Positions 1 through 50,463 of a stretch of 52,317 nucleotides of DNA are shown here, one piece after another. Source of the DNA: a virus (taxonomy: Duplodnaviria > Caudoviricetes); IMG/VR virus record IMGVR_UViG_3300036828_000027, positions 1 to 52,317 of that record, one strand, 5' to 3'. Made by a program: the position numbers and the translations under genes. Position 1 is the first letter of the stretch, and every line of letters starts with the position of its first letter. The notes under the pieces are model-generated. The model was not told the origin of the DNA. It saw only the letters and a program-made list of their open reading frames with translations, and did not search any database.

Positions 1-2373
1 CGTTGTTATTTCCTTTGGCCATTTGTACTGTACTCCGGCACGACGGGCCAGGAGGATATCTTTAGCCTTGCTGAGTCCGATACCTTTAATATTAGTAAGC
101 CCACCAAGGAACGCCCCGTCTGCATAACTCCAAGTAACACCACTCTTGTCTAAATCATATGGAGTAAATGGATAACCTGCCCTATCAAGTTCTCTCAAGT
201 AACGTTTGATAGGTTCCTCAAATGATAAGTTTCTAATATTAGCTAGAGCAAACTCAATAGGATAATGAGCCTTCAATACGCAGCAGAAATAAGACAACAT
301 ACCATAGGCTACTGCATGAGATTTATTGAATGCCCATGACCCCATCTTGTTAACACTATCCCATATCCTCCTGGCCGTGGTCTCATCTATGCCTTGTGAC
401 ATAGCACCTTCACGAAACCTCTGCCAGAAACGATCAAAGTATTCAATACCGAAAGACTTAGACATAGCCTTGCGTAATGTTGATGTATCCTCCCAAGATA
501 GTAGGCCAATCTCACGAACACAATTCATTACTTGTTCTTGATATACTATAACACCATATGTATCTTTGGTATAACGTTCCATAGATGGATGGACATATTG
601 CGCCTCTTGTTTACCCATACGTCTCTGAACCCACTCGTTACTGGCGCCAGAAGCGAATGGCCCTGGTCGAGCAAGAGCAGTAAGACAAGCTATATCATCG
701 AAACGATCTACAACTAGTCTCCTGGCGAGAGTTTGTAATGCTTGACCTTCAAACTGGAATATACCACAGAACTGAAACTTGCGCAATACTTCAAAAGCTT
801 TGTCATCATTTAGAGGATGCTTCAACAGATCACTATACTTCCAACCTATTGCCTCTAAACAATCAGCAATAATGGTTAGTGTCTTGAGACCTAATGCATC
901 TATCTTCATTAGATTGATTAGTTCGGCATCGTATTTATCAATATGAACTGTATTGGTTCTTACATCCTTAGCTACATAATTGATGAGAGGTTCATTGGTT
1001 ATAATGACACCAGCTGCATGCTTACCAGTAGTGTGTGCGTGGTTCTCTAGTTCTCCTGCAATAACCATAGCGGGATACTGTTCAATAAACCTTTGTCCTA
1101 TTTCTAGTTCTTTGAACGTATCAAGAATACATAGTCCTGCTCGTGAGTCTCCACTGCTCCTTTTGAGCATTGAGTCCTTTAGAGCAATAGTATCAGCATC
1201 AGGTATTCTTAATGCTTTGGCAGCCTCTCCAATAGCAGACTTGGGCTTATATCTTAGTATGGTCCCCAATCGCGCAACATTCTCACGACCATATTTATTT
1301 TGGATATAGTCAAATACCATTTCTCTTTTATTGTCTTGGAAATCAATGTCAATATCAGGCAAGTCATACCGAGTGATATCAATAAACCTCTCAAAAATAA
1401 GCCCATGAGGTAGAGGATCAATGTCAGTAATACCAAGCAAATAGCAGACAAGAGAACCGCAGGAAGAACCGCGAGCAGGGCCAACCACCATATTCTCTTT
1501 TGCATATCGCACCATATCTGTTATAACATAGAAGTAATCCTCATAGCCTTTGTCATTGATAAGTTTCAATTCATAGTCTAATCTGTCTTTGTATACTTGA
1601 TTGAGTTCTAATCCTCTACTCCTGGCGCCCACAAGACACATATCCAGTAATGTTGTTCCTGAACTATACTTGATGTTAGTTGCTGTTTGTATAGTAGCAT
1701 CACATTCTTCTGCGAGCCGGTCCGCCAGGAGGAAGGCTTCATCACTAATGTTCATTTCATTACGCAATCCCCACTCATCCATAATATACATAGGTGATGG
1801 TCGGTCGTTGCGAAACTTCCTGGCTAGTATTTGATATATTGAACGATCCTCAGCATTGATCATATAGTTATCAGATACAGCAACAACCTTTCCATCTCTT
1901 AGTAGCATACCTCGCGTAGAACTGTGCCCCTCCCGTAATACGCGCTGCCCGAGCTTAGGTCCATCTCCTAGTCCTGAACTTCCGCTGAGTATAATAACAT
2001 CTTTACTGAAATCATTTAATTTCAAGAATGGTAGACGCGGAACAAAATAAAAATTGCGAGTTGCTTCCTCCATAGCAGAATAGATTTCACGTAATCCAGA
2101 ATTGGTCTTTGCTATGATTGGTAACCAAAATATGTTTTGTCTCTTTTCACGAACATTGACATCTCTAACAAAAGCAAATTCACACCCAAACAATGGTTTA
2201 ATACCTGCATCTTTACAATACTTATTCCAAATAACATGGCCAAATGTTGAGTTGCGATCTGTTATTCCTGCGGATTGACATCCTAATTCTTTGAGTCTAT
2301 TCACCACCTTTTGAATAGGCCCATAAGCCCATCCGAAACTGTATTCGGTTCTTATTTTGAGTTGGGTATGCAT
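1..2373 (-). CDS. dnaE: DNA polymerase III alpha subunit (family C), N-terminal 791 codons; continues across the window junction
   Basis: Missing from the ORF track because it runs off the edge. Manual translation from ATG 2373: MHTQLKIRTEYSFGWAYG...GITDRNSTFGH (PHP), GPARGSSCGSLVCYLLGITDIDP, FERFIDITRYDLPDIDIDF, GKHAAGVII, KIDALGL, GIFQFEG, ALARPGP, TYGVIVYQEQVM, AFNKSHAVAY, IKGIG. Confidence 0.97.
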   Translation of the reverse strand, partial: MHTQLKIRTEYSFGWAYGPIQKVVNRLKELGCQSAGITDRNSTFGHVIWNKYCKDAGIKPLFGCEFAFVRDVNVREKRQNIFWLPIIAKTNSGLREIYSAMEEATRNFYFVPRLPFLKLNDFSKDVIILSGSSGLGDGPKLGQRVLREGHSSTRGMLLRDGKVVAVSDNYMINAEDRSIYQILARKFRNDRPSPMYIMDEWGLRNEMNISDEAFLLADRLAEECDATIQTATNIKYSSGTTLLDMCLVGARSRGLELNQVYKDRLDYELKLINDKGYEDYFYVITDMVRYAKENMVVGPARGSSCGSLVCYLLGITDIDPLPHGLIFERFIDITRYDLPDIDIDFQDNKREMVFDYIQNKYGRENVARLGTILRYKPKSAIGEAAKALRIPDADTIALKDSMLKRSSGDSRAGLCILDTFKELEIGQRFIEQYPAMVIAGELENHAHTTGKHAAGVIITNEPLINYVAKDVRTNTVHIDKYDAELINLMKIDALGLKTLTIIADCLEAIGWKYSDLLKHPLNDDKAFEVLRKFQFCGIFQFEGQALQTLARRLVVDRFDDIACLTALARPGPFASGASNEWVQRRMGKQEAQYVHPSMERYTKDTYGVIVYQEQVMNCVREIGLLSWEDTSTLRKAMSKSFGIEYFDRFWQRFREGAMSQGIDETTARRIWDSVNKMGSWAFNKSHAVAYGMLSYFCCVLKAHYPIEFALANIRNLSFEEPIKRYLRELDRAGYPFTPYDLDKSGVTWSYADGAFLGGLTNIKGIGLSKAKDILLARRAGVQYKWPKEITT

Positions 2374-2648
2374 TGTGGTGCCCTTCCTCTTATTATTGCA
2401 TCTTGTAGGTTATCTTTTGGAGTGCCCAAATAGAGATGGTCTAAGTTTACACATCTATTATTATCACAATGATGAAGAACCCATAATCCTTTGGGTATTG
2501 CACCTTTGTGTTTTAACCACATTTTCCTAGCCTTTGGTGCTTTGTTTGTTTCCCAGCAACCAGTTATTGGATTAATGGTATATGTTATCCTTACATCAGT
2601 ATCGGGTATCCTGCCGTATCTATTCTTTCTGGGACCCCAAGTTCGCAC
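2352..2648 (-). CDS. HNH endonuclease (free-standing, homing-type)
   Basis: GCWE...VLHHCDNNRCVNLDHLYLGTPKDNLQD motif; overlaps both neighbouring genes. Confidence 0.9.
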   Translation of the reverse strand: MRTWGPRKNRYGRIPDTDVRITYTINPITGCWETNKAPKARKMWLKHKGAIPKGLWVLHHCDNNRCVNLDHLYLGTPKDNLQDAIIRGRAPQCIPNSK

Positions 2649-2952: not shown

Positions 2953-3482
2953 TGCCGATTAATCATTTCTTTGTAGACGCGAACTAATGCTTTTGTATCT
3001 GCTTCCGCTCTATGAGCCTCTTCAAATGTTTCACCAAATAGTTCAAAGTATAGATTGCCAAGAGACATACGATATCCTTTGATCTTCATTACTTCTTCAA
3101 CAGTACATACATTCTTGGGAGGCCACGGGAAATTTGTTACTTTGTTTATACGTCTAAGTTCATATTCAAGTACATGTTTATCAAATTGTAGATTGTGGCC
3201 AACTAGTATAGATACATCAAGAAAGTAATTGGCTAGTTGTTTATAGTGCCCTGCAAAGGGCTTCTGGCCCGAAACCTCTTCATCTGTAATGCCATGTATG
3301 TTGACAACTTCAAGAGGTATTCGTATTGGAGGTTTGACTAATGTAGTGAGTATTGCTATAATGTCAAGATCATAATTAGTCTTTACACAAGAGATTTCTA
3401 CCATATGAGGTTGATGCGCTAGGTCTGCAGCCTCTACGGCCAGGAGCGCAGTTGTTTCTGTATCCATAAATACTATTGTCAT
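2931..3482 (-). CDS. dnaQ: DnaQ/epsilon-like DEDDh 3'-5' exonuclease
   Basis: DTETT, VGHNLQFD, AHRAEADT motifs. Confidence 0.95.
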   Translation of the reverse strand: MTIVFMDTETTALLAVEAADLAHQPHMVEISCVKTNYDLDIIAILTTLVKPPIRIPLEVVNIHGITDEEVSGQKPFAGHYKQLANYFLDVSILVGHNLQFDKHVLEYELRRINKVTNFPWPPKNVCTVEEVMKIKGYRMSLGNLYFELFGETFEEAHRAEADTKALVRVYKEMINRQWAEMPT

Positions 3483-3769
3483 GGTCGTTTTTCCTCATCT
3501 AGTTCAAGTAATATTGTTGCATATACTGCCATATCTTTGAGATGATCAGAATTTTCTGGTGTATAGAAATTGTTACAGTATCGCATTAACTTTGTTATGA
3601 TATGAACTATAATACAGAACCTATTGAAATTCAATGGCGTATCTAATTCAACTCCTTTAGTAAACAATGCTTCTAATACTGGCCCTGCTTCTTTATAATT
3701 GGGTCCATATTCTTGGTTTCTTTTGTCATATAAGTTTGCTAGTTCTACTAATTGATCTGATGGTGTCAT
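3479..3769 (-). CDS. DUF1599/DUF6378-like nucleotide-modification-associated protein
   Basis: KRNQEYG...KLMRY...DHLKDMAVYA pattern; sits next to MazG and ThyX. Confidence 0.6.
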   Translation of the reverse strand: MTPSDQLVELANLYDKRNQEYGPNYKEAGPVLEALFTKGVELDTPLNFNRFCIIVHIITKLMRYCNNFYTPENSDHLKDMAVYATILLELDEEKRP

Positions 3770-4167
3770 TAGAACTTTTTACCTCCTGGCAGCATACGTG
3801 CTTCTAGTTTGTGATCTTCTCTCATTTGATTATAACAGAACTTCTCAGCAAAGCAAGTTCCCAAGTTTAGTCGCAAACCTCCTGCCAAATCAAATATTCG
3901 TATTAGAGCATCTGCCAATTCTACTGTTATTGATGCTTGCTGAGTTATGTGCTCATCCTTAGCATCTTTGCGATAGCCTTCCAATGCTTCACTGATCTCA
4001 CTGTGTATTAGGCATAGTAATTCTCCTACATTACGTTCCTTATCCCACCAATGATTAGCTCTTGATGCTCCATGGCATTGTGCCATTAAGTTCTCTATCA
4101 TGAGACCCATTTTGTAGTATGTATCTACAGAAACGATGAAGCCATTGGTATCTGTGTCTTTGATCAT
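3769..4167 (-). CDS. MazG-like NTP pyrophosphohydrolase
   Basis: LIHSEISEALEGYRK and VELADALIRIFD motifs; GGKKF C-terminus. Confidence 0.9.
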   Translation of the reverse strand: MIKDTDTNGFIVSVDTYYKMGLMIENLMAQCHGASRANHWWDKERNVGELLCLIHSEISEALEGYRKDAKDEHITQQASITVELADALIRIFDLAGGLRLNLGTCFAEKFCYNQMREDHKLEARMLPGGKKF

Positions 4168-4358
4168 ATCATTACTCCTAATGTATTAGCTATCTTTGAC
4201 ACTGCTTCAAATTCCATTCTTCGTAAATCAAATATTGATAGTGGCGATCGCTGTGAGCAAGCTTGTTCAATTCTAGCACATTCACTAGAGAATATTGTTC
4301 TTGCTTTAGCTAACGGAGTATCAGATTTCATCATTTCTAGCACTTCAGTATCGGTCAT
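4164..4358 (-). CDS. hypothetical protein
   Basis: Coupled ORF with an AGGAG RBS. Confidence 0.6.
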   Translation of the reverse strand: MTDTEVLEMMKSDTPLAKARTIFSSECARIEQACSQRSPLSIFDLRRMEFEAVSKIANTLGVMI

Positions 4359-4362: not shown

Positions 4363-5109
4363 TTACTCCTGGCGCAGTATGTCGAGATGTTTCATTGCTA
4401 TCCAAGCTTGGGTTTCGTTTTGAGACTTGCCTGTTTCTTTGATCTCCTTGTCTAGTTGCTCTTTAAGATAAGATGCTAGTTCTTTGTGGGCATCAGCATT
4501 GCGAGGCATAATAAACAATAGAGACCAAGGCCATACCTCTAATACACTTGTGACCATTTGCTTTAATACTTCAGCATATTCGTCCTGAACTCTTGGAGTC
4601 ATACGCTTCTTGACTAGATCAGCAAAGTTGCGCAAGTTAATCTTCATACAAATATTGGTGAGTATATCTGTTGGCAATACTCCACGAGCATCCTCAGGCT
4701 TTGCTCCCAAATCAATTAGTGTTCGATATGTATTGCTAATAGTAGACATAGTAACAGCATATAAATTTTGAATAGTTTCATTGTCCTTTATTGACGGCCC
4801 AGTATGATATTCAAACCCAGTCATATCAACTATACGCATAGCTTGTTGAGCATAGCTTGCAGTCCTAGTCCTAACAAGTTGGTGAGTAAATGCCCTTGAT
4901 ACTCCTTCAATAACAAACATGAGGTCTACAAACTCCCATGAACTTGGGATCGTTGTAGACATATACTTCAATTCTGCCATCTTCTTCTCACGCGGCCAGG
5001 AGCGGATTTCATCCATTCCTTCTGGGCCCATCTTCAATCTTGTGTTCTTAGTAAAGATGAGCAACTCTATTGCTTCTGGCGTCGCATATAGTAATGTTAC
5101 CTTAGGCAT
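4363..5109 (-). CDS. thyX: ThyX-family flavin-dependent thymidylate synthase homologue with a variant active site
   Basis: FVIEGVSRAFTHQLVRTRTASYAQQAMR, GAKPEDARGVLP, NLRNF...R...VQDEY. Confidence 0.9.
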   Translation of the reverse strand: MPKVTLLYATPEAIELLIFTKNTRLKMGPEGMDEIRSWPREKKMAELKYMSTTIPSSWEFVDLMFVIEGVSRAFTHQLVRTRTASYAQQAMRIVDMTGFEYHTGPSIKDNETIQNLYAVTMSTISNTYRTLIDLGAKPEDARGVLPTDILTNICMKINLRNFADLVKKRMTPRVQDEYAEVLKQMVTSVLEVWPWSLLFIMPRNADAHKELASYLKEQLDKEIKETGKSQNETQAWIAMKHLDILRQE

Positions 5110-5118: not shown

Positions 5119-6051
5119 CTATGTTGGGAAGTATCCGTAGTGTCCTGATCTTATCTGTCTTTGTGATATAAACCGGCTGATTACATCAATGTCTCCCATT
5201 ACATCATCGAGTAGTATCTGTCTCCAAGTAGCGTATCGTCCTAATGAATAGATATTGAATTTGTCAGTAGCCCACAGTATAAACTTCTGTCTTTCATAAT
5301 CATTTATTGGAACTATCTTGCCGTATTGCTGTTCCTTTTCAATGACATTAGTTATATCAATATGATTGATATCAAACATGAGACCAAGATATTTCTTAAT
5401 GTGATCGTCAATAATATCTGAGCAGTCAGGTTTATGCGCAAACTCCATTGTCATTCTATTGCCAGTAATGCTGACTCTATAAGGTTCATATTCTCCATAT
5501 GGAACATATAGAGTTTGGTATACATCTACACCTAATAGATCGCAATTAATAGTCCATATCTTTTTGGTTTCAAATTTAGGTTGTCTTGGATAGTCAAGTA
5601 TACGCATTAAATCCGGCATCGGAATTGTAGAAATAATTGGTTGTTCGATTTTGGTGCCTCTAAGTAAACTCTCAGCATTATGTTCGTATTTGATATCGGC
5701 TCCAATGCTACATGTCTTGACCAAGTCGTATGGCGCAATGTAGCGTGAAACATTTGCAATATTGGTAATAGATCGGTTGTAGGCTCCACCGGTTGATTTG
5801 ATAGAATAAGCATTATATTCTCTGATGGTTGGAGAATTTGTAATCGTTTCATCATCAAGAAGCACTCCTTTGTAGACAGTTACTTCTTTGAATGGAACGC
5901 CTATAGCATCTCCAACTATAGAGGATCGAAACCTCAGTAATGCACTATGATTATTTGGCAATTCTTTTTGCTGTTCATAAATGATAGGGTCCCAATGAAT
6001 TAATCTCCTGGCGGCCAGGAGGCCTGCCAATCCTGCGCCTAGGATAATCAT
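5119..6051 (-). CDS. FAD-dependent oxidoreductase (UDP-galactopyranose mutase/amine-oxidase-like fold)
   Basis: N-terminal IILGAGLAG Rossmann motif; C-terminal SLGRYATWRQILLDD. Confidence 0.8.
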   Translation of the reverse strand: MIILGAGLAGLLAARRLIHWDPIIYEQQKELPNNHSALLRFRSSIVGDAIGVPFKEVTVYKGVLLDDETITNSPTIREYNAYSIKSTGGAYNRSITNIANVSRYIAPYDLVKTCSIGADIKYEHNAESLLRGTKIEQPIISTIPMPDLMRILDYPRQPKFETKKIWTINCDLLGVDVYQTLYVPYGEYEPYRVSITGNRMTMEFAHKPDCSDIIDDHIKKYLGLMFDINHIDITNVIEKEQQYGKIVPINDYERQKFILWATDKFNIYSLGRYATWRQILLDDVMGDIDVISRFISQRQIRSGHYGYFPT

Positions 6052-6775: not shown

Positions 6776-7627
6776 TCAGAATGCTGGGATTTTATCACCA
6801 CCAAGATCATCTTGAGGCTGTTCCCAGTCAGTCTGCTGTTGAATATCTCCTTCCAAGAAATGTTCTTGTAGGAGAATAGCTTGCTTAAATATCTCTTCAC
6901 CATTCGGTAAATCTTGTGTTCTTACGTGCATATTCTTTTCATTTACATTCTTTACAATCTTTGGAGACCACCAAGATTGACCTTGAGTATTACGCAACAA
7001 GTCTAATGTCATCTTGTATGTGAAGTAATAGAATGGCGGAGTAATCGTCTGCCCATTACCCAACTTAATACGAGTTTGAGTAAGCATAGTTGACAAGAGA
7101 TTGGCGACGCGATTACCAGTGCTTCTCAAATTGAAGAAGCTAGGATCAGTCTCACCAGTCTTAGTGTTAACATCCAAGATAAGAAATGATCTCTGCTTAT
7201 CTATATAGTTGCCGTCTCTGGTAATTGGATTGAGAGCTTCACGTTGGGCAGGCTCACACAAAGCCTTCCAACCTTCATCAGTCCCCCAAATCTTTACCAT
7301 TCCGCTGCCAGGATTATTAGACACCCACTGTATAGTTTGTTTCTGGTGCCCAATAACGCATAGTATCAGTCCCTCCTGGCCAGGAGTCAATTTGTTACTG
7401 GAAGTATTGTAGAACATTCCCGCTTTGGCATTAGGAACATATTGCGGCCCACCTTCCTGGACCTCAGGGTTTAATTGTTGTAATACTTTGAGGCGAGGAA
7501 CAACGAGTTCATTGCGTTCAAACTTAGTATTCTTTTCGGCCAGCTTGGCCAGCATTTCTTCTTCTTGAGTAAGAGTTGTTGGAACTTGCTCAGAGGCGCT
7601 GTCTTGACGAACTACACGCTTTGCCAT
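6776..7627 (-). CDS. putative single-stranded DNA-binding protein
   Basis: VPRLKVLQQLNPEV...AKAGMFYN pattern, acidic tail ending DDLGGDKIPAF, replication context. Confidence 0.55.
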   Translation of the reverse strand: MAKRVVRQDSASEQVPTTLTQEEEMLAKLAEKNTKFERNELVVPRLKVLQQLNPEVQEGGPQYVPNAKAGMFYNTSSNKLTPGQEGLILCVIGHQKQTIQWVSNNPGSGMVKIWGTDEGWKALCEPAQREALNPITRDGNYIDKQRSFLILDVNTKTGETDPSFFNLRSTGNRVANLLSTMLTQTRIKLGNGQTITPPFYYFTYKMTLDLLRNTQGQSWWSPKIVKNVNEKNMHVRTQDLPNGEEIFKQAILLQEHFLEGDIQQQTDWEQPQDDLGGDKIPAF

Positions 7628-9357: not shown

Positions 9358-9416
9358 TACGAACGTATATACGTCGCGTATATACGTATATACGAACGTA
9401 TATTCCATCAATACTG

Positions 9417-9725
9417 CTAATCCATTCTGGATACCTCCCAAGTTCCATCTTTTTGTTTTATCATTACCCAATCATGTTCATATAATGTTATTTCTTCATC
9501 ACGCAAATATGTTCTAAATATAGGTAGCATTGGTGGATCGCCTGGATACTTTAATCTGTCTCCTGCTATTAATTTATGACCTTGAAATGGACTCCAGCCG
9601 CCAAATATATAATTTTGTTGAAATTGTTCTTTGGCCGGCCTAGGATCATCTTCAGATATAAATTGTGGTATATACCCAAGCATCTCAGGTCTAGCTTGTG
9701 GATGCAAAGCAACCCAGATCATCAT
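9417..9725 (-). CDS. hypothetical early protein
   Basis: Coupled ORF; KYPGDPPMLP motif. Confidence 0.75.
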   Translation of the reverse strand: MMIWVALHPQARPEMLGYIPQFISEDDPRPAKEQFQQNYIFGGWSPFQGHKLIAGDRLKYPGDPPMLPIFRTYLRDEEITLYEHDWVMIKQKDGTWEVSRMD

Positions 9726-9914
9726 TCACTCCTGAACGTTATAGGTCAATTTGGCAGTATAGTTTGTCACCACCCAACCTCTTACTTGAGTATAACAATA
9801 CTTGCCACACTCAGGGCAATAATTGGGCATCCTAGGATTAACCCAACAAAGCAATGTCCCGCAACACCCAGTATGTATCAAACGAAACGGAACATATTGT
9901 GTTTCTTTAGGCAT
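9726..9914 (-). CDS. small Zn-ribbon protein
   Basis: CCGTLLC...YCPECG; start refined to MPKETQ. Confidence 0.65.
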   Translation of the reverse strand: MPKETQYVPFRLIHTGCCGTLLCWVNPRMPNYCPECGKYCYTQVRGWVVTNYTAKLTYNVQE

Positions 9915-10149
9915 CTTTGTACCCCAGTCTACCGCCAACAAGATGAGCAATATCAGCGATTTTGTAACGCCAACGCTCGCCAGTAGAAGTATACTTGCCA
10001 ACTTTGACAAGCATTAATCCACCAGGCATTACAACAATATCTGGAGGTGAATCTTTACGCCAAACTAGACCATTCAACTCTAGATCATGTATTGGGAATG
10101 TGCCTTGTGACATAGTTCCCTCAACTATGAGAGTGAACTTCTCTTCCAT
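9907..10149 (-). CDS. hypothetical early protein
   Basis: ATG follows a partial leader repeat, GTCTAGAAAGGACAGGAACA. Confidence 0.7.
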   Translation of the reverse strand: MEEKFTLIVEGTMSQGTFPIHDLELNGLVWRKDSPPDIVVMPGGLMLVKVGKYTSTGERWRYKIADIAHLVGGRLGYKDA

Positions 10150-10221
10150 TGTTCCTGTCCTTTCTAGACTACACCCATAATCGGGCAAAGCGCGGCCAGG
10201 AGTTACTGGCCGCAAATGCTT

Positions 10222-10392
10222 CTATAGTGAAGGTCTGTGTAGTTGATCGTTTATAACTGTAATTTCATCCAAGTCTAATTTCGTGATCTTGTGTTCTAAT
10301 TCCTTGACTCGTTTCTCTAGCTCCTTGAGTCTTTGTTCCGCTTTCTTCAACTTATCTGTTAGAGTTGGCGGTTTCCTTGGTGGTTTCTTCAT
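10222..10392 (-). CDS. small basic coiled-coil protein (56 aa)
   Basis: Manual translation MKKPPRKPPTLTDKLKKAEQRLKELEKRVKELEHK...; below the ORF-track cutoff. Confidence 0.6.
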   Translation of the reverse strand: MKKPPRKPPTLTDKLKKAEQRLKELEKRVKELEHKITKLDLDEITVINDQLHRPSL

Positions 10393-10404
10393 TCTTAATG
10401 CTTC

Positions 10405-11114: not shown

Positions 11115-11115
11115 A

Positions 11116-39365: not shown

Positions 39366-40347
39366 TAGAACGTATAGGTTATTGGTGGGTAAGAAAGGTC
39401 AATCTCAAGGTGTAGAGATTACTGACTCTTTGCGTATTCAATTTGATATTGAAAAGACTGCCAAGAAAAATCCTAACAAGAGCACTATTAAAGTATACAA
39501 TTTGAGGAAAGAAACAAGAGCAGAGTTTGAAAAGCCTGATACTAGAGTTGTGTTATATGCTGGATACAAGGACGAAGCAGGAGCAATATTAATCTTTCAA
39601 GGTAGTGTAAGTTATGCGTGGTCAAGAAAAGATGGACCTGATCTTATTACGGAATTTGAACTTGGAGATGGTGCTACAGAAATACGTGATACGACAATAT
39701 CAGTTGGCTACGGTAAAGGTATTAAATCAACTCAAGTTCTCAATGATGTCTCCAAACAGATGGGGCTGCCGTTAACTTTGCCCAATAATGCTCCAACTAG
39801 AGTTTGGAATAATGGCCTGTCGTTTCATGGTCCTGCTAGAACATTATTAGATAAGGTTACTAAAGGAACCAATCTAGAATGGTCTATACAGAATGGAAAC
39901 TTACAGGTCATAGAGAATGGTATGGTAACAACTAGACAAGGGATATTGATATCACAGAGTAGTGGTATGATTGGTTCTCCTGAAAGAGAACGATTGGCCA
40001 AAGCGCATACGCATGCTAAAGATAAAGGCAAGACTGTCGGACAGCCAATCATAGAACCTGATTATGATGGCTGGAAAGTAAAGTCATTGCTTATGCCTAC
40101 ACTTAATCCTGGTGATAGAATTCAACTAGAGGCACTATTTGTAACTGGGATTTACAGAATAGAAGAAATCAAACACCAAGGAGATAGTGATGCCACTGGC
40201 GATTGGCAATCAGAATTGCGCGTTGTCGATCCTAGAAAGCCAATAAAGGATACTAAAGGTGCTACTCAAAAAGGAACAGTAAGTGATGATTCTATTACTG
40301 AGGATGATTTGATAGACGCTGGAGGAATGCTCTATGTTGCGGCTTAA
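39337..40347 (+). CDS. baseplate hub protein
   Basis: [32 protein letters not shown]. Confidence 0.85.
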
Positions 40348-42421
40348 TCTAACTGAACTAATTGAGCAGCAAATAGAGGTTCAACTTGGCAATACTTTGA
40401 ATACAAGTATGCCAGCCAAGATCATTAGTTATAATGCAGCAACTAATCGTGCTGTTGTAAAGCCTGTATTGCCTAAGAGACTAGCAAGTGAAGAGCCATT
40501 AGACTCACCTCAAATTGTAGAAGTTCCAGTTGTATTCCCTGCTTCTGGCGGTGGTAAAGCTAGTATGACTTTCCCGCTTAAGCCAGGTGATGGAGTTATG
40601 CTTGCTGTTCAACAAAGATCAATGGAAGGATGGCTGGATGGCAAAGAAACGATGCCGGATGATCCTCGGCAATTCGATCTTTCTGATAGTGTGGCCATTG
40701 CTGGCTGTCAGCCTTCTGGTATTGTTGGTGATCCCGACAATGTTGTTTTGAAGTTTGATAAATGCACTGTCACTCTAACAAAAGATAATAGTGTAGTAGT
40801 AGCAACAGAGAAAGCCAATATAGTTGTAGATAAAGATGGCAACATAAACCAAACAGCACAGCAATCATATGTCGTTACTGCGCCTGCAATAACCTTGGGA
40901 GGATCAGGTTTAGATCGCGCGCCTGGCAATATTCAAGTTAACTCGCATATGCATATTCTACCACCTGCTTCTGCTGATGAAGCTGCCAATAAAGAATATG
41001 TTGATAGTGTAGCTAGTAGTGGAGTTCAAGGCCCACCTGGACCGCAGGGACCAGAGGGACCACAAGGTGAAATAGGACCACCAGGACCACAAGGCCCAAC
41101 TGGCGCTGATTCTACTGTTCCAGGACCGCAAGGACCACAAGGTAATACTGGACCTGCTGGACCTAAAGGTGATACTGGTCAACAAGGCCCAACTGGTCCA
41201 CAAGGGCCACAAGGAGCAGACAGTACAGTTCCAGGGCCAGTAGGACCGCAAGGACCAATTGGAGATACTGGACCTCAAGGCCCACAAGGAGATACTGGAC
41301 CTCAAGGCCCACAAGGAGCTATACCTGAAGCTCCAAATGATATTTCTACTTATGGTAGATCAAGTAATGCTTGGGTGCCAATTCCTGAATTGAAATGGAT
41401 TGCTAATAATATTGGTTGGGACCCTGGTAATATTGATCCCAATAATCAAGGACATATTGGAACATGGATAGTTTCAAATCAAGATGATGCTGCTTTAGGA
41501 TGGCCTGCTAGTAATCCTGATAAAACTGCAATGATTTTACATGGCTATAATAGTAATGCTGGATGGCAAAACCAATTGATGATGGGTGGTCGTGAGCGAG
41601 GTGGCGGTCCAGCAATTTGGTATCGTAGCACTCAAGATGGCGATTGGGGACCATGGAGCCGTTTATTTAGTGATGCTGGTGGAACAATTAGTGGACCTGT
41701 AACTCTTAATGCTGCATTGATTACTAATGATATTGCAAGTCATAGATCAGGCATTGATTTTAACAGCGCTGTTGTATCTAGTCCAAATGATCTTTCAAAA
41801 CATATTAATATGTATGGCGGAATGTATGGTTTCAATATTACTGGTAGCACACTGAATTATAATAGTGGAGTTGTACATAATTGGTGGGTTGGTCTGACTA
41901 ATGTAATGATGCTTAACTCTAGTGGCTTAAGCATGTATGCCCCAATCATTCTGCCTAGTGAACCTATAGGTTTATGGGAAGCAGTTCCTAAAATTTATTC
42001 TGATCGCAACAAAACTCGTGGTCTTATAGATGTAACTTCTGGCGCAGTTACTGCGACTGATAGTGAAGTAGATTATGCTTATATTTACATCTATGGATCG
42101 CCTACTGCCCCAGCCACAGTTACAATGCCAGTGACAACTACCACTCGCATAATGTGGACGCTCAATAATACAACACAACAACCAGTTACATTCCAAGGAG
42201 TAAGTGGCGGCACTATTACTGTGCATTCTGGCGCTTCGCAAGGAGTATGGACCGATACTGGTGGCATTTATCCATTATATAATGCCGGTCAAACACGACC
42301 AGCTGGAGACAACTCGACGTTCTGGGCCACTACTGAATATGTAGACACACAAATAACTACCCTGTCAGCTAGACTTGCTACTCTTGAAGCTGCTAACTCG
42401 CAATGGGACGTAGGAGTGTAA
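40334..42421 (+). CDS. central spike (Gp138-like N-terminus) fused to collagen, foldon-like and fibre-like domains
   Basis: VPVVFP..GG...FPLKPGD, RQFDLSD; about 31 Gly-X-Y triplets; IPEAPND...YGR...WV. Confidence 0.85.
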
Positions 42422-42424
42422 TCA

Positions 42425-42748
42425 ATGTCCACAATTCAAATCTCTAATCAAACGCCATTCGGTGGTATGACTAATCGAATGGTTGCTAGTATCCTTAGCA
42501 ACAATACTTCTATGCTTAGACTCAAAGAAGCAATAGCTACTGCTAATGCTGGTTATGAAGGTGTAGCTGGCGTTCAATTTGAAGACCCTCAAGGTTTGTT
42601 CGGAGTAAAGGCTGACCCATCTGCGCCAGGAGTAAGAGGTTCAGACTATGCTTATGCTATGGATAGTTTGTCTGCAGTATGGGCAACATTCTGGGAGGCT
42701 GCTCAACCATATCTCAAACAGCTAGACAATGGCTCTATGTCAATGTGA
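42425..42748 (+). CDS. hypothetical protein
   Basis: Coupled ORF with an AGGAG RBS. Confidence 0.7.
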   Translation: MSTIQISNQTPFGGMTNRMVASILSNNTSMLRLKEAIATANAGYEGVAGVQFEDPQGLFGVKADPSAPGVRGSDYAYAMDSLSAVWATFWEAAQPYLKQLDNGSMSM

Positions 42749-43364: not shown

Positions 43365-44823
43365 TACCATTAATGTTGGTGATTATGGTCTATTGGCTAC
43401 TGGATTTTCGCGTATGCGATTTCCAGAAATTAGACAACAAATCATAGACACATTACAACAAAAGACTGGAGTAACATTTGAGACCAGAACAGATTCAATT
43501 ACGGGTCAGTTCATTGATACGTTCGCTGAACGCGAAGCAACGTTATGGGAATTGGCTGAGGCTGTCTATCATGCTATGTATCCTAATTCTGCTACAGGTA
43601 TTAATCTTGATCACTCTGTTTCTTTTGCTGGAGTAAGGAGACTATTTGCAGAGCGATCATCCTCCTGGGGTGTTTGCTATGGAGTAGAAACTACAGTTGT
43701 TCCTGCTAGCAGCATAGTTCGCAATAACAATACACAAGATAATTTCTTGTTGGATAAAGATGTAACCATATCTAGACAAACAACTATTGATACTACTTTA
43801 CAAGTAATGGATGCCATTGTAGGTGGAGAATACTGGATACAAATCAATACTATAATGCATCTCTATATTTGTGTTGCGGGAGATACTCCTTTAACAATTG
43901 CAGATGCTCTATACACCCAACTATTAAATATGAATTTGGTAATTGAATTAGATGCTAATTATATTCGCATATATGGAATAGAATCAATCCCATTTGCTCT
44001 TCAACTATCCACCAACATAGGTATTTCAAAAATAGGATCGCCTGCTAATTTTACTGCTGAGAATTTCGGGCCAATAGATATTGCTGCTCATAGTCTAACT
44101 ATAATTGTTTCCACTATGACTGGCTGGACAGCAGTAGACAATATTGTTGCTGGTAGAATGGGTCGCAATCTAGAGACAGATGATGAACTTAGACTGCGAT
44201 ATGATCGAGGCGTATTTAGACTTGGCGCTACTACAATAGAAACAATACGCTCTAATCTGTTGCAAAATGTTCAAGGTATTCTTAATGTTCAAGTATATGA
44301 AAATACAGAAGATGTTGCTGATAGTGATGGTCGCCCACCCCATAGTATAGAAGTAATTGCACGTGGCGGTGACCCGCAAGATATAGCTGATCAAATATGG
44401 TTATTGAAAGCGGGTGGCATTGATACTTTTGGAGACACAACTGTTCAAGTAGTAGACAGTATTAATGTCACACACCAGATTAATTTCAGTAGAGCAATAC
44501 CAATTTATATTTGGGTGAATGTAGATATAACATTATACGATGAAGAAATATTCCCTGACAATGGTATCGAGCTTATTCAACAGATTGTTACTAACACAGG
44601 CAATACATTCGGAATTGGCAAAGACGTTATTATTCAACGTTTCTTTGGTCCGATCTATGCCACTGTATCTGGAATTGGCAAGATAGATATTACTGCTGTT
44701 GGTTTATCCGATCCTGCTGGCGTCCCGGCGCCAGGAGATTATGTGGCTGCCAATATACCTATATCACCAAGAGAACTATCAACATTCATTATAACTAACA
44801 TTACTGTGAAGACATCTACATGA
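43357..44823 (+). CDS. baseplate J-like wedge protein
   Basis: ATGINLD, GRNLETDDELRLR, PPHSIEV, KAGGIDTFG. Confidence 0.92.
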   Translation: MSDTINVGDYGLLATGFSRMRFPEIRQQIIDTLQQKTGVTFETRTDSITGQFIDTFAEREATLWELAEAVYHAMYPNSATGINLDHSVSFAGVRRLFAERSSSWGVCYGVETTVVPASSIVRNNNTQDNFLLDKDVTISRQTTIDTTLQVMDAIVGGEYWIQINTIMHLYICVAGDTPLTIADALYTQLLNMNLVIELDANYIRIYGIESIPFALQLSTNIGISKIGSPANFTAENFGPIDIAAHSLTIIVSTMTGWTAVDNIVAGRMGRNLETDDELRLRYDRGVFRLGATTIETIRSNLLQNVQGILNVQVYENTEDVADSDGRPPHSIEVIARGGDPQDIADQIWLLKAGGIDTFGDTTVQVVDSINVTHQINFSRAIPIYIWVNVDITLYDEEIFPDNGIELIQQIVTNTGNTFGIGKDVIIQRFFGPIYATVSGIGKIDITAVGLSDPAGVPAPGDYVAANIPISPRELSTFIITNITVKTST

Positions 44824-45434
44824 GCGACACTCTAAACTTTCCCCACGATCATGGCGAGATCGCTTGGGGCCATATGCTTGCCCAACATTTCAATAAGGAG
44901 AATACTGAAGATTTTGTTAAGTCATTCTATCCTCCACTCAACGTCCTTGATAAAGCATTACAGGATTTGTATACTAGGAGATGGCTTGAAACAGCTGAAG
45001 GCGAACAGTTAGATGGCATTGGTTATATTGTAGGTATAGCGCGCGTCATTTCTGGTTCTATTTATGGTGAGTTCTTTGGATTTGTTACTCAGATAGCTGG
45101 TCGAGCATTTGGAGTAGCAAGAATGCGGCGCAAAGGTGAGCCTTGGTCATTTAGTTCTGTGCTAGGCGATACTGAATATAGAACATTGATCAAACTAAAG
45201 ATTGCTTTGAATAATGGGCATGGCACTGCTGAAGAAATAATGCAAGCTTATAACATGACATTAACTGTAACTGGAACTATAGTTAATGATACTGGCAATG
45301 CTACGGCTGATGTTGTGATCAATGATTATATACCTTCGAATGATCCTCGATCGCAACTATTCAATTACATGATACCCAAGTCTGCTGGTGTTAAACTTAA
45401 CATTGTAACTCTAGCTGCACCGCCAGGAGAATAG
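44820..45434 (+). CDS. baseplate wedge protein (DUF2612-like)
   Basis: AEGEQLDGIGYIVG, YRTLIKLKI, PKSAGV. Confidence 0.88.
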   Translation: MSDTLNFPHDHGEIAWGHMLAQHFNKENTEDFVKSFYPPLNVLDKALQDLYTRRWLETAEGEQLDGIGYIVGIARVISGSIYGEFFGFVTQIAGRAFGVARMRRKGEPWSFSSVLGDTEYRTLIKLKIALNNGHGTAEEIMQAYNMTLTVTGTIVNDTGNATADVVINDYIPSNDPRSQLFNYMIPKSAGVKLNIVTLAAPPGE

Positions 45435-45436: not shown

Positions 45437-46639
45437 ATGGTATCTCTAATTGATTTCACTAAACCTATATATGGCGAACCGACTACACAAAGCGTGAGAG
45501 ATAACTTTCAAATAGCAAATCAAGAAATAACTGATATACAGAACCTATTGACTGGTGACCTAGGTTTCATTTCTCAAGGTGATGCTGATCTACGTTACTT
45601 GCAACTAATTGGAGGTGTATTAACTGGTGATTTGAATGGCGCTGGTGTTTATGGAACTTCTGTTAGTTCATCAGGTAATGTAAATGCCACTGGCGTATTT
45701 ACTGGAGGTTCTGTAGACGTAACAGGTAATGTAAGATCAGGCAGCAGTCTAATGGTGGCCAGCGGCATTACTTTTGTCGCGGACAATTATGCTTATTATA
45801 GTGGTCGATCTAGTTCTGATGGCGTCTGGCGTTGGGTTCAGAATAACGCTGAGTTAATGTCTTTAGATACTGCTGGAAGTTTACATGCAATAGGTAATAT
45901 GTGGTGTAATGCTGGTCTATGGTGTTATGGAAGTCTGTTAGCATATAGTGGTCGTATTTTATCTCAGGCTGGAGCTAATAACGTTTCAGTAACTTGTTAT
46001 GATACATCACTGGGTTATGCTGCTGGCATGTGTGTTCAATCTGGCAATGCTGCAGGTCTATTTTTTGGCGCAATGGATGGTAATGGAAATGTAGCTGCTT
46101 GGTTAGGATATATTGCTGCTGGTTCTATTGGATGCAATAATGCCTCAGCTGCTTTCTGTAATTATAATGGCGCCTATTCTTTATTGTGGGGTGATCAGAC
46201 TGCTATGACTGTTCCTGGTGCGGCTTGGAAACCTGGAGGTGGATCATGGGCTGATAGTTCTGATTTAAGAATTAAGAACGTGATTGGCGATTATACTTCT
46301 GGCCTGGAGGCAATACTAGCACTCCGCCCCATTCGTTATAATCTCAAAGGCAATTGGAGTTATATTGAAGGTCGAAATGCCGAGGTATCACGCGACAAGA
46401 AACCAGCAATACAAGCGCCACATGATATTGCAGCTGAAGCAGGAACAGAATTTATTGGCTTTGTTGCTCAAGAGTTGGAAACTATAATGCCAGAAATGGT
46501 CAATAAAATACCTGCTAAGATTGATGGTAAACTAGTAGATGATCTACGGACTGTAGACATTACTGCTTTACCATTTGCATTGGTTAATGCTATTAAGGAG
46601 ATCAATGCTAGACTAACAGGACTAGAAGCCCGTGTTTGA
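45437..46639 (+). CDS. tail fibre with a C-terminal intramolecular chaperone (peptidase S74)
   Basis: WADSSDLRIKN, LRPIRY, GFVAQE, LVNAIKEINARL. Confidence 0.9.
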   Translation: MVSLIDFTKPIYGEPTTQSVRDNFQIANQEITDIQNLLTGDLGFISQGDADLRYLQLIGGVLTGDLNGAGVYGTSVSSSGNVNATGVFTGGSVDVTGNVRSGSSLMVASGITFVADNYAYYSGRSSSDGVWRWVQNNAELMSLDTAGSLHAIGNMWCNAGLWCYGSLLAYSGRILSQAGANNVSVTCYDTSLGYAAGMCVQSGNAAGLFFGAMDGNGNVAAWLGYIAAGSIGCNNASAAFCNYNGAYSLLWGDQTAMTVPGAAWKPGGGSWADSSDLRIKNVIGDYTSGLEAILALRPIRYNLKGNWSYIEGRNAEVSRDKKPAIQAPHDIAAEAGTEFIGFVAQELETIMPEMVNKIPAKIDGKLVDDLRTVDITALPFALVNAIKEINARLTGLEARV

Positions 46640-46871
46640 CGGAACTGACTATAACCCAAGGAGAAAGCGATTGGCTATACAAATTGAACTTCCACAGGAG
46701 GAATGGATTAAGATATTGGATATGCTCGCAGACTATCCATTCAGAAGAGTTGCTCCACTAATACAAACTTTACAACAGCAACTAATGCCACAAATGCAGC
46801 AACCGATGCCACAAATGCCACAAAGAAACAATGGTGAAGCTCGCACACCGCCGCCAGGAGGAAACAACTAA
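46632..46871 (+). CDS. small fibre-associated protein
   Basis: LADYPFRRVAPLI..LQQQ. Confidence 0.6.
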   Translation: MFDGTDYNPRRKRLAIQIELPQEEWIKILDMLADYPFRRVAPLIQTLQQQLMPQMQQPMPQMPQRNNGEARTPPPGGNN

Positions 46872-48422: not shown

Positions 48423-48641
48423 ATGAAAGATCCATTCGACCCACTTAGAGGTGCATTCTTATTAATCGCAGGTTTAATATGTTTAATAGCACTAACAAAT
48501 TTACTAATCTTTACTGGTTGTATATTGAGAGTGGATACTTTGTGTACAAGACCAGTTAACATAGGTCAAGTAACTTTGGAACTCATTACTGCTATATCTG
48601 TACTGATCGCAGCGCGTAAGCCGCCAGGAGGTAACACATGA
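48423..48641 (+). CDS. putative holin
   Basis: Two hydrophobic segments; directly before the amidase. Confidence 0.55.
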   Translation: MKDPFDPLRGAFLLIAGLICLIALTNLLIFTGCILRVDTLCTRPVNIGQVTLELITAISVLIAARKPPGGNT

Positions 48642-49000
48642 GCTATATAATTGAAGATGCTGGGCAACATGAAGACAAAGTTATAGACACTGGACATTGC
48701 GTTCGTTTCTTACAAGAAATAGGCAATCTACCACACACATCTCAATGGAAGCGAGGTATGAAAGCCAAGAGTGCAATTATACCTAATGGAACTTGTATAG
48801 CTACATTCTCTCCTGGCGGAGAATACGAGAACAATATTGACGGATCAAGTCATGCTGCAGTATATGTAGGTCAAACTCCTGAAGGTCTTATTGTATATGA
48901 TCAATGGCAAGGACATCCAGTATCAATAAGAACAATATGGTTTCGTAATGGCAAAGGTAAAGCTGTTAATGATGGTGATCAATACTATGTAATTGACTAG
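48638..49000 (+). CDS. peptidoglycan amidase of the Tae2/BPSL0067-like NlpC/P60 family; probable endolysin
   Basis: GHCV (Cys), TSQWKRG, GTCIATF, SHAAVY (His), VYDQW. Confidence 0.75.
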   Translation: MSYIIEDAGQHEDKVIDTGHCVRFLQEIGNLPHTSQWKRGMKAKSAIIPNGTCIATFSPGGEYENNIDGSSHAAVYVGQTPEGLIVYDQWQGHPVSIRTIWFRNGKGKAVNDGDQYYVID

Positions 49001-50463
49001 ATTGGATCGGTCATAAACTTCTGTATTTCAGTTAGACTGCGGAACCACTGAGACTTGACTTGTTTCTTCTTCAATTCAGCTAACAATCTATGATCAATAG
49101 TCTTTGGAACTATAATATCATGATATGTTACTTTACTCTCCTGGCCGATGCGATGGTTGCGATCCTCAGCTTGTATTCGATCGGTAGATGACCAAGTGTT
49201 ACTATAGAATATTGTAGTTGAAGCTTCGTTCAATGTGAGTCCAGTCCCGCCAGAAGCAACAGTAATAACCAGGGCTTTATAGTCTTTCTCCTGGCGCCAT
49301 TTGTCTATATTCAGGAGCCTATTAGAGCCATCATCGCGAGACGATACGCCTATACCCCGGATGTGGTTACTAGCTAGCTCTGAAACTATTAGCTGTACAT
49401 CCATTATAAAGCGACAGAATATAATCACCTTACCAGAAGCATCTTCAACTAGTTCTGAAACAAAGTTAGCTCTATTTGACGGAATGATTTCTGTAGCCCT
49501 AGGATCATCAGATGTATTAATGTGACCACATAATACTTGCTGTAGTCGTATCATATTTGTTATTGCCATAGTCGCATCGACCAATTCGCCAGTCTTAAGT
49601 TCATACAATAATTGTTCTTGCAACTTACTATAAATGCGTTCTTGTTCTTTGGTCATACTTATTTCGTGAGTAACATATACCTTATCAGGTAAGTCTAGAC
49701 AATCCTTTTTGCGCTTCTGATAAGCAAATGGAGCGATCTTAGAAGCTAACATTTCCTCATTACGATAGCCAACTATTTGTCTAAATATTTGCCCACTCCT
49801 AATTTGTTTCTGATCCTCTATACAATACATATTCTTGAAGGCAGTATAAGAACGCAATCCAATAATGTTTTGATCAAGAAATTTGAATTGAGAGTATAGA
49901 CCCTCAATGCCTTCTTCAGCTTCAGTGCCTGTGGCTATGCGACGAAATTTAACATAGTTACTCAACTCTATTATTGCCTTTGTTCTTTGAGCTCCTTGAT
50001 TTTTGATCTTATGACTTTCGTCTACTGCCATGTATATGCCGCCTCTGAGTTTGGGCGCCAGGAGTATACGCTTCAAATAGTTCTTGCCTCCAACTGATGA
50101 CAAAGCTTCAATATTCATCAAGAATACAAGAACCTTATCTGACTCTAATATCCTAATGGTTTCTGCTTCTTTCTTTTCAAGTGCTATACCAGAGCGCCAT
50201 ATTTGTATCGTCCATTTGTCATAGTTAGGAGGCCCATGTTTGATAAGTTCTGACTCCCAGTTAATATGAACATTATTGGGCGCTACAATGACAGCACATT
50301 TGATTAGGTTCAATTCAATTAGATTGACTATCTCATCTACAATAATCTTACTCTTGCCTGTTCCCATCTCCAGGAAGTATGCAAACCCAGTCTTACTCCA
50401 TGCTTGTTGTAATGCTTCTATTTGATGCTGATAGGGTTCAGTTGTTATTATCATCATTCTCAT
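48997..50463 (-). CDS. SNF2-family helicase/ATPase
   Basis: EMGTGKS, VDESH, ATGT, GGTGLTL, QAEDRNHRIGQ. Confidence 0.95.
   Translation of the reverse strand: MRMMIITTEPYQHQIEALQQAWSKTGFAYFLEMGTGKSKIIVDEIVNLIELNLIKCAVIVAPNNVHINWESELIKHGPPNYDKWTIQIWRSGIALEKKEAETIRILESDKVLVFLMNIEALSSVGGKNYLKRILLAPKLRGGIYMAVDESHKIKNQGAQRTKAIIELSNYVKFRRIATGTEAEEGIEGLYSQFKFLDQNIIGLRSYTAFKNMYCIEDQKQIRSGQIFRQIVGYRNEEMLASKIAPFAYQKRKKDCLDLPDKVYVTHEISMTKEQERIYSKLQEQLLYELKTGELVDATMAITNMIRLQQVLCGHINTSDDPRATEIIPSNRANFVSELVEDASGKVIIFCRFIMDVQLIVSELASNHIRGIGVSSRDDGSNRLLNIDKWRQEKDYKALVITVASGGTGLTLNEASTTIFYSNTWSSTDRIQAEDRNHRIGQESKVTYHDIIVPKTIDHRLLAELKKKQVKSQWFRSLTEIQKFMTDPI

Follow-up and report, generated by a model that had tools for sequence, protein, structure and literature searches.

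Introduction

A few short words are selected throughout bacterial chromosomes, among them Chi sites, DNA uptake sequences and the FtsK-orienting polar sequences (KOPS), and they have revealed processes of DNA repair, uptake and segregation. We know of no other genome-wide selected word that is private to a phage lineage. The subject here is an octamer, CTCCTGGC (read on the other strand as GCCAGGAG), which is dispersed through the 52,317-bp IMG/VR record IMGVR_UViG_3300036828_000027. The whole of this sequence was analysed and is referred to as the window. The best explanation of the octamer is a selected cis-acting DNA signal that is read in a strand-aware manner during genome replication.

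With Chi sites the octamer shares the form of a short, asymmetric and strongly over-represented oligomer, a switch of polarity at an origin-like point and the CTGG core of the enterobacterial and Pseudomonas sequences. It differs in residing in a phage lineage, in being about five times denser and in having one orientation that is uniform and even rather than replichore-skewed. DNA uptake sequences (DUS of Neisseria, uptake signal sequences (USS) of Pasteurellaceae) likewise occur about once per kilobase, on both strands and in all frames, with frequent inverted pairs; their positions change while the density stays constant, and the word is specific to the lineage. They are, however, borne by competent bacteria and read by an uptake machine, whereas the octamer is carried by a virulent-looking phage, has strand polarity and is evenly spaced on one strand, and no such bacterium was found among 1,203 sampled. 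KOPS and the SpoIIIE recognition sequences (SRS) are, like the octamer, 8-mers with one free position and a polarity tied to replication geometry. KOPS are far rarer and their skew is >80–90%; such a strong skew, with one orientation per replichore, is not seen for the octamer, of which one orientation is spread uniformly and the other comes in addition only in the early half (13:23).

Primase sites (5'-GTC-3' plus flanks for T7 gp4, 5'-CTG-3' for DnaG) resemble the octamer in the role on the lagging-strand template proposed here, in the Okazaki-scale spacing and in the presence of an own primase. The known sites have a three-base core and no genome-wide selection, whereas here the word has eight bases and the primase is of the archaeo-eukaryotic primase (AEP) type, not DnaG/TOPRIM. 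RepB' of RSF1010 is an AEP primase joined to a helix-bundle domain and starts only at specific sequences, the single-strand initiation (ssi) signals; the modelled primase of the window shares this two-part build in a weak match (Z 5.3–5.6). There are two ssi signals, both long hairpins located at a single origin, in contrast to some 60 dispersed octamers. The start-associated sequences of Cluster K mycobacteriophages are also a lineage-specific repeated word that includes the ribosome-binding site, but they lie just upstream of start codons, as only 7 of 57 octamers do. T5-type nick sites are on one strand, whereas the octamer has 28 and 29 copies on the two strands and close inverted pairs. 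The highly iterated palindrome HIP1 differs in its symmetry, and the Dcm/EcoRII site in that CCWGG itself does not carry the octamer signal.

Over-representation and exact word

The window contains 57 copies of the octamer, 28 as CTCCTGGC and 29 as GCCAGGAG on the plus strand, a density of about 1.1 per kb. It is the top 8-mer of the window by a wide margin. A preliminary description of this DNA had counted about 57 copies by eye; the count is exact, and all 23 coordinates given there are among the copies. The chance expectation is 0.98 copies (standard deviation 1.01, largest 4; 100 dinucleotide-preserving shuffles), or 0.72 from base composition, giving an excess of about 58–79-fold, smaller than the roughly 100-fold first estimated.

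Coding constraints explain little of this. The copies use all six reading frames, and both strands and differing frames had been described correctly. Synonymous codon shuffling that kept the proteins left 10.6 ± 2.0 copies when done within genes (largest 17; 200 shuffles) and 9.2 ± 1.5 when codons were pooled over the genome (largest 15; 200 shuffles). Six copies in the shuffled genomes fall outside the shuffled codons; therefore only about 4–5 arise in coding DNA, compared with 51 observed. Seven of the 57 copies serve as Shine-Dalgarno (SD) sequences, 7–13 nt ahead of a predicted start codon. Among the 84 open reading frames (ORFs), called by a simple longest-ORF method, 17 have AGGAG at positions −20 to −1, and the full octamer is present in 6–7 of these. 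AGGAG occurs 153 times in the window, and GCC precedes it in 57 cases. The enrichment thus persists under codon-preserving shuffles (57 versus a mean of 10.6) and ribosome-binding sites account for 7 of 57 copies only, and the original view that the word is no codon or peptide artefact is upheld.

The ninth base after the octamer is G in 40 copies, C in 15, A in 1 and T in 1, matching the description of usually G and sometimes C. Although it is G or C in 55 of 57, its conservation in the complete relative G411 (81% nucleotide identity to the window) is barely above that of the flanks. Position 3 is tolerant (CTNCTGGC), with C in 57, T in 12, A in 7 and G in 5, where about one is expected for each variant. 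One-mismatch copies at the other positions number 0–4 each, so that the impression of common one-mismatch copies holds for position 3 and not elsewhere. In the distant member G416, position 1 varies as well. CTGGC is enriched 3–4-fold in the lineage genomes but not in the motif-less relative G004. To judge from these counts, the graded tolerance fits a binding-type preference and not the all-or-none recognition of restriction enzymes. Outside the octamer, CCWGG occurs 90 times versus 57 expected, against an octamer excess of at least 58-fold; strand and spacing likewise argue against a simple link to Dcm.

The octamer is asymmetric, and GCGATCGC occurs only once in the window; the 10-mer CTCCTGGCGC is frequent (23 copies). 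Inverted pairs of the octamer have spacings of −2 to 35 nt, with a preferred arrangement. The motif-free stretch over the spike and fibre genes (39,211–42,624) had been attributed to recent exchange. It does not exceed the length expected by chance, the largest gap being, if anything, short (P 0.086), and other fibre genes carry copies at 44730, 45422 and 46853; the attribution thus has no statistical support.

Even spacing and half-genome polarity

The 29 copies of GCCAGGAG on the sense strand of the late genes are evenly spaced all round the circle of the window. The coefficient of variation (CV) of the gaps is 0.42, the mean spacing is about 1.8 kb and the largest gap is 3,682 bp; the split by strand followed inspection of the data. 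In 3,000 random placements this evenness was never reached. It exceeds that of placement at gene boundaries (P<0.0001) and of one copy per gene (P 0.0008), and it holds separately in the late and early halves (P 0.0008 and 0.0018). Several of the larger gaps are filled by position-3 variants, and the set crosses genes of both orientations. The evenness repeats in G411 (CV 0.44), G415 (0.50), G003 (0.61, P 0.005), G416 (0.60, P 0.02), G820 (0.68, P 0.02) and G821 (0.61, P 0.0006). Per strand, the mean spacing in the lineage genomes is 1.5–2.1 kb.

The other orientation behaves differently. CTCCTGGC on the plus strand is clumped (CV 1.2–1.4). Upstream of the point where the helicase gene meets the nuclease–TerS–TerL block, a stretch amounting to 48% of the circle contains 23 of the 28 copies (binomial 1.8e-4, Fisher 0.006 for the window). 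This early half holds 13 GCCAGGAG versus 23 CTCCTGGC, whereas GCCAGGAG is uniform over all octants. The same confinement is found in G820 (22/27) and G821 (24/29), and the octant pattern is common to six complete genomes, with per-genome Fisher values of 0.006, 0.07, 0.05, 0.19, 0.005 and 0.03. The cumulative skew peaks at 46–52% of the circle in five of the six and at 81% in G416.

Two of these genomes provide a control for transcription. In G821 and G416, the block of early and replication genes is inverted relative to the late genes, with the DNA polymerase and SNF2 helicase on the late-gene strand. Among their early genes CTCCTGGC on the late-gene strand still prevails (13:9 and 9:4), and among their late genes the CTCCTGGC:GCCAGGAG ratio is 4:14 and 5:8. 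The polarity persists despite the inversion; therefore transcription is not its cause. The plus-strand genes of the window at 14–21 kb also behave as the rest of the early half.

Lineage restriction and conservation

The lineage was defined by its large terminase (TerL), with which 80 loci were found in IMG/VR. Of the five closest (65–77% identity), four carry the octamer at 0.9–1.3 per kb; the other is a 4-kb fragment with a single copy. Over all relatives whose TerL is at least 64% identical, the density is 0.5–1.7 per kb. The remaining 75 loci have 0–4 copies each. In nine whole lineage records, the copies per length in kilobases are 32/32.5, 18/20.9, 43/42.1, 60/52.4, 55/52.1, 38/53.2, 35/35.2, 28/32.6 and 33/32.8, and a reversed-word control gives 0–1 each. 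The motif-less relatives G004 and G005 have two copies and one copy. A profile search with the primase found 24 loci, all of the lineage and all octamer-rich (0.53–1.67 per kb). IMG/VR was also scanned for close inverted pairs, a search that detects only contigs containing such a pair. It gave 112 stretches, 80 of them listed; among these, every locus that combines at least 4 copies with a density above 1 per kb (22 loci) encodes homologues of window-phage proteins. No other signature word stands out in the more distant TerL relatives, where the best 8-mers have 7–19 copies among many similar ones. The octamer is a trait of one uncultured phage lineage, and it can serve as a simple metagenome marker for it, whichever protein is the reader.

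Alignment with G411 shows that single copies are maintained. Forty-one of 53 aligned sites are identical, compared with 25.6% of all aligned 8-mers (binomial 5e-15), and conservation is 0.87–0.98 over exactly the eight octamer positions versus about 0.78 in the flanks. The evenly spaced set is the best conserved, with 23 of 27 aligned GCCAGGAG copies kept. At greater distance, site retention is 29/39 in G415, 12/31 in G820, 5/25 in G821 and 3/25 in G416, where background 8-mers are retained at 16, 7, 3 and 4%, respectively. In the distant members most site positions differ and the density is unchanged, and the word itself is constant across phages whose proteins have diverged to 30–40% identity. 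Retention above background together with turnover of positions at constant density implies selection both on single copies and on the supply of copies. The copies are under purifying selection with an exact 8-bp footprint. The earlier proposal of a selected recognition site is borne out by the codon shuffles, by retention three to five times the background and by this footprint.

A proposed replication-linked priming signal

Taken by itself, the sequence indicates that a specific reader acts in a directional process along the entire genome. We tentatively favour the view that the copies act as signals in replication, most probably as sites at which the AEP primase of the lineage starts on the lagging-strand template. 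The primase (18184–19185), with the VapE-like helicase (19397–20986), would start Okazaki primers at GCCAGGAG on that template. Forks would leave the origin (~20,970–21,200) both ways, and the copies used in one half of the circle would be on the strand opposite to those used in the other half. At a later stage, replication would run one-way (rolling-circle), follow the late genes and draw on the evenly spaced late-sense copies round the whole genome. Some copies would have second uses, as SD sequences (7/57) or hairpin arms. One strand is regular all round and the other is occupied in the half that a leftward fork would cross, as lagging-strand priming by a sequence-specific primase would require if replication were two-way early and one-way late. 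Okazaki fragments of bacteria and phages are on the scale of the 1.5–2.1 kb spacing. We infer the iteron region as origin, the fork directions, the two replication modes and the primase as reader. If a phage primase is the reader, the lineage would be a testable case of sequence-programmed lagging-strand priming and self-restricted replication.

It is possible, but on balance doubtful, that the primase (or primase-helicase) has an eight-base template code and that the genome is a selected, evenly spaced map of Okazaki start sites. The occupied strand all round would then reflect one-way late replication and the other strand the half of the leftward early fork, an assignment we hold with similar reserve. 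If true, this would be the first genome with lagging-strand start sites hard-wired and visible in its sequence, and the phage replisome would be blind to host DNA.

Several points weigh against a primase as reader. Primases of known recognition use a three-base core; the octamer has eight conserved positions, and we know of no precedent for an eight-base primase requirement. Primase, helicase, nuclease and TerS are inherited together, and their distribution does not tell which of them would be the reader. The pattern came first and the two-mode replication model was fitted to it, and the geometry fits a Chi-like leading-strand signal equally well. The preferred arrangement of inverted pairs is left unexplained by priming. 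The window, G411 and G415 are close relatives that share most sites and are not independent, and independent support for the evenness comes mainly from G820, G821, G416 and G003. Evenness is slight in the early-half set (P 0.20, 0.024, 0.015 and 0.54 in four genomes), and the polarity is weaker in G416 (Fisher 0.19, skew peak at 81%). GC skew tracks transcription, and no independent indication of an origin comes from it. It is also possible that the reader belongs to the host.

Alternative readers

The geometry would also suit a Chi-like signal for a host helicase-nuclease of the RecBCD/AddAB type, a reading we consider unlikely but a rival to be taken seriously. The octamer is a short asymmetric 8-mer with one tolerant position, and its polarity switches at the candidate origin, as Chi skew does in bacterial chromosomes. 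CTCCTGGCGC shares CTGGCGC with a Chi that is reported for RecBCD of a Pseudomonas, and CTGG with the Escherichia coli Chi. The same word is found across phages with proteins at 30–40% identity, as expected for a conserved host enzyme. In a phage without an inhibitor of its own, the octamer might then switch the enzyme from degradation to repair and so protect rolling-circle tails, broken forks and injected ends, although this too seems unlikely. However, the density of 1.1 per kb is about five times that of E. coli Chi, and even spacing is not a known property of Chi. No unrelated octamer phage was found in the inverted-pair scan, the 22 dense loci listed all having window-phage homologues. 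Phage-like density was absent from the 1,203 sampled bacterial genomes, where enrichment at the level of Chi is hard to tell from codon effects. A host nuclease as reader would make the octamer the Chi sequence of a soil host and a means to link uncultured phages to their hosts. We give a similarly low probability to another lineage-encoded double-stranded DNA-binding protein that marks or handles the whole phage genome. The candidates, each improbable when taken up in this way, are TerS (capture or loading for packaging), a genome-coating or condensing protein, and immunity against the RecU-like nuclease or the SNF2 ATPase. The octamer and the lineage-specific TerS and nuclease genes have the same restriction to the lineage, the graded tolerance of the octamer (position 3, position 1 in G416, CTGGC 3–4-fold) resembles a position weight matrix, and a uniform one-strand set fits any one-way process along concatemers, packaging included. 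On the other hand, the sequence-specific proteins that act on the iterons change specificity between close relatives while the octamer is constant over far larger distances, a dispersed recognition site for a terminase is without known precedent, and pair spacings of −2 to 35 nt are ill-suited to a fixed dimer site.

The remaining explanations have less in their favour. Site-specific modification or nicking (T5-like nicks, methylation, hypermodification) is quite improbable. The CCWGG core and the encoded ThyX, pyrophosphatase-like protein and nucleases speak for it, but the excess of CCWGG outside the octamer is small (90 versus 57), and modification gives no reason for enrichment or even spacing. 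No methyltransferase was found in the 47 ORFs scanned; the statement that the window encodes none stands for these, while 84 ORFs were called and the small ones lay outside the scan. Nicking is contradicted by the presence of copies on both strands and by conserved inverted pairs 0–14 nt apart, where two nicks would break the DNA. The preliminary description had chosen none of the readers that it listed; among them, a priming site or a Chi-like signal is favoured by strand and spacing, and nick sites are disfavoured by the both-strand occurrence and the close inverted pairs. Lineage restriction, one-strand evenness and half-genome polarity did not figure in it. An RNA-level element, in which the strong SD sequence GCCAGGAG, an anti-SD-like partner CUCCUGGC and regulatory hairpins were spread by translational selection, could explain the seven SD sites, the inverted pairs with a preferred arrangement and the more frequent mRNA sense of GCCAGGAG in late genes (14:5). 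Yet 50 of 57 copies lie away from start codons, some 40% have the antisense orientation relative to the mRNA and the evenly spaced set continues across genes whichever way they point. Variation is tolerated at the central G of AGGAG, and GCC, which precedes 57 of the 153 AGGAG, is not needed for translation. This element is largely refuted by the orientation data, and we give it very little credence. We think it just as improbable that functionless copies accumulate as a neutral by-product of biased mutation or repair (a drive resembling very-short-patch (VSP) repair or gene conversion). A drive would lead to the observed turnover of positions without change in density, and the core is the Dcm/Vsr site; but neither even one-strand spacing nor half-genome polarity is expected, the one-mismatch neighbours are not depleted and no enzyme of such 8-bp specificity is known.

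Positions of the copies

Copies given here as minus are GCCAGGAG on the plus strand and form the evenly spaced set; plus copies are CTCCTGGC on the plus strand. The minus copies at the start of the window are 47–54 (early half; kept in G411), 1724–1731, 3439–3446 and 4995–5002 (lost in G411), followed by 10195–10202 (intergenic), 17023–17030 and 17784–17791. Beyond the candidate origin they continue with 21205–21212, which is an SD sequence 9 nt before ORF 21222–21677, and 22763–22770 in the TerL gene, found at the same place in loci L001, L002 and L005. Then follow 24929–24936, 25947–25954, 27054–27061 (absent in G411), 28457–28464, 30245–30252 (SD, 11 nt before ORF 30264–30776), 31703–31710, 34595–34602 and 36307–36314 (SD, 9 nt before the tape-measure gene 36324–38285). 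The set ends with 39203–39210, 42625–42632, 44730–44737, 45422–45429 (SD, 7 nt before ORF 45437–46639), 46853–46860, 48623–48630 (SD, 7 nt before ORF 48638–49000) and 50057–50064; its other members are arms of inverted pairs.

The plus copies of the early-half set begin past the end of the late genes at 48810–48817, with 49138–49145 and 49288–49295 next. Across the ends of the record follow 368–375 (kept in G411), 719–726, 1619–1626 and 2914–2921. The copies 3783–3790 and 4366–4373 are SD sequences of minus-strand ORFs, 13 nt before 3479–3769 and 7 nt before 4164–4358; the former has one mismatch in G411. The set continues with 10662–10669 (intergenic), 11459–11466, 12521–12528 (intergenic), 14464–14471, 15875–15882 and 17829–17836. 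Two copies lie in the primase gene (18394–18401 and 18595–18602) and one in the helicase gene (19496–19503), and 20088–20095 is the last early-half copy ahead of the candidate origin. Plus copies are a rare class in the late half (29444–29451, 29468–29475, 30436–30443, 38023–38030 and 38904–38911).

Inverted pairs with the plus copy as the left arm and a minus copy of the evenly spaced set on the right are 6005–6012 with 6014–6021 (1-nt gap), 7373–7380 with 7379–7386 (overlapping, CTCCTGGCCAGGAG; the plus copy is kept in G411), 13869–13876 with 13877–13884 (a perfect 16-bp palindrome), 15328–15335 with 15350–15357 (a hairpin with a 14-nt loop), and 38023–38030 with 38066–38073 (35-nt gap). Near-identical octamer hairpins also recur between small early genes of other lineage members, three or four in G001 (L082, ~29.6–31.5 kb) and two in G003 (L086, ~37.6–38.7 kb). 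An example is the arm ACTTGCTCCTGGCC, a loop and then GGCCAGGAGCCTTT. In these hairpins the order CTCCTGGC–loop–GCCAGGAG is strongly preferred to the reverse.

Candidate origin and replication genes

The candidate replication origin (20972–21200, no strand assigned) consists of iterons and an AT-rich stretch, and the octamer polarity switches here. The 236-bp spacer 20,986–21,222 contains AGTAGAA three times direct and three times inverted around the core GTAAGTCGCTGAAATCG, which is kept in relatives; beyond the core are an AT-rich stretch and then GGTAGAGC three times. The relatives have other repeat words in the same layout in their helicase–nuclease spacer. The iteron word tracks the helicase: G411 and G415, whose helicases are 62% identical, have the same iterons, and the window, at 39–40%, has different ones. 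It does not track TerS. From this covariation we infer a candidate origin bound by the VapE-like helicase; a pac site is the other candidate for the region.

The VapE-like (P4/D5-type) replicative helicase is encoded at 19397–20986 on the plus strand (Pfam PF05272, E 6e-37) and is likely the origin-binding initiator, judging by the shared variation with the iterons. The helicases of the window and G411 are only 39–40% identical, while other proteins are 65–90% identical. This divergence suggests that initiator and iterons were exchanged, or evolved fast, together.

The candidate reader, the AEP-type primase, is encoded at 18184–19185 on the plus strand. It has an N-terminal AEP fold with a DxD motif (D119/D121), invariant in the alignment, and a C-terminal four-helix bundle, and it matches the PHROG 'DNA primase' profile (E 2.5e-8). 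The predicted model has a mean local confidence (pLDDT) of 79, and its non-helical structural matches are filled by AEP primases (Z 5–6.6). The N-terminal domain matches PrimPol, poxvirus D5/E5, herpes primase and RepB' (Z 5–6.6), and the predicted AEP assignment rests on the consistency of these modest Z values, not on their size. The primase is present in every lineage contig that covers the region, and the primase-helicase block in all 24 loci of the primase profile search.

Downstream of the origin, all on the plus strand, are a RecU-like PD-(D/E)xK nuclease (21222–21677), a probable small terminase (TerS, 21824–22141) and TerL (22141–23532; PHROG 979, E 7.8e-162). The nuclease matches Pfam RecU below the cut-off (E 5.6e-4), has a conserved D..ELK and is restricted to the lineage. 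TerS has about 105 residues from an MPDGF start and precedes TerL; its small-terminase match in the PDB has an E value of only 0.89. Run against the sequences of the PDB, the profiles of nuclease, TerS and primase found weak matches or none.

Genome content, host search and further repeats

The window is the entire record, a single contig of 52,317 bp with a GC content of 41.6%. The DNA polymerase gene spans both ends, and the record is therefore a circular permutation. The structural genes are those of a tailed phage: terminase, portal, Mu-F-like protein, major head protein, sheath-like DUF3383, tape measure, baseplate hub/J proteins and fibres. Replication and metabolism are represented by DNA polymerase A, the SNF2 helicase, the VapE-like helicase, an RNase T-like exonuclease, ThyX and an HNH gene, and a pyrophosphatase-like protein and nucleases are also encoded. 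The phage is a virulent-looking myovirus of a soil lineage. No tRNA genes were found in the window, and ORF 14358–15317 gave no functional lead in the Protein Atlas (best score 0.80). A megablast of 5.6 kb against the phage collection had no match. A tblastn search with TerL found no match above 54% identity there, and there is thus no close cultured relative. The sole public DNA sequencing run that contains the sequence is a soil metagenome, in which it occurs as contigs and from which the window possibly derives; no RNA sequencing run is listed among the public runs.

In the library searched, the octamer as a whole word was not found in a relevant context, the one listed of two matches being an unrelated cancer study. 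Literature searches on over-represented phage octamers, and on evenly spaced primase recognition, brought up no such motif. The bacterial genomes comprised 401 of cyanobacteria (maximum ~0.09 per kb for the 9-mer), 401 of gammaproteobacteria (0.2 per kb for the 8-mer, where the reversed control is also high) and 401 of Bacteroidota (0.04 per kb for the 9-mer), none near the phage density. Four of the gammaproteobacterial genomes (G458, G715, G560 and G727) are unpublished and contribute their counts alone. A scan of genome contigs for CTCCTGGC(N0-1)GCCAGGAG gave at least 120 matches, single and mostly in high-GC DNA; among the matches listed, none has more than 6 copies in 8 kb, and they neither lead to a host nor speak for absence of the word. 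A homologue search with the tail fibre returned unnamed metagenome proteins only. Pfam matches to Pam3 gp33/gp34-like proteins had suggested a cyanophage link, which was dropped, as the family is widespread in PB1-like phages and gives no host clue. The product of 29608–30255 ends in a weak PEP-CTERM-like motif (E 0.00096, just under the Pfam cut-off). Such an end is odd for a protein of the phage structural region and perhaps points to a Gram-negative host that has an exosortase.

Next to the DNA polymerase gene lies one for a small HNH endonuclease (2352–2648), which has no counterpart in G411 and G415 and is probably a mobile insertion of the homing type. A further repeat in the window is the palindrome CGTATATACG, with 11 exact copies and 18 of its core GTATATAC. 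There are 10 copies of CGTATATACG in G411, three in G415 and none in G416. Nearly all of those in the window lie in the early regulatory region (9365–14239), mostly paired at 12 bp start to start (for example 13227/13239 and 14157/14169). In this arrangement they look like operators of an early regulator, a localised set resembling binding sites in contrast to the dispersed octamer.

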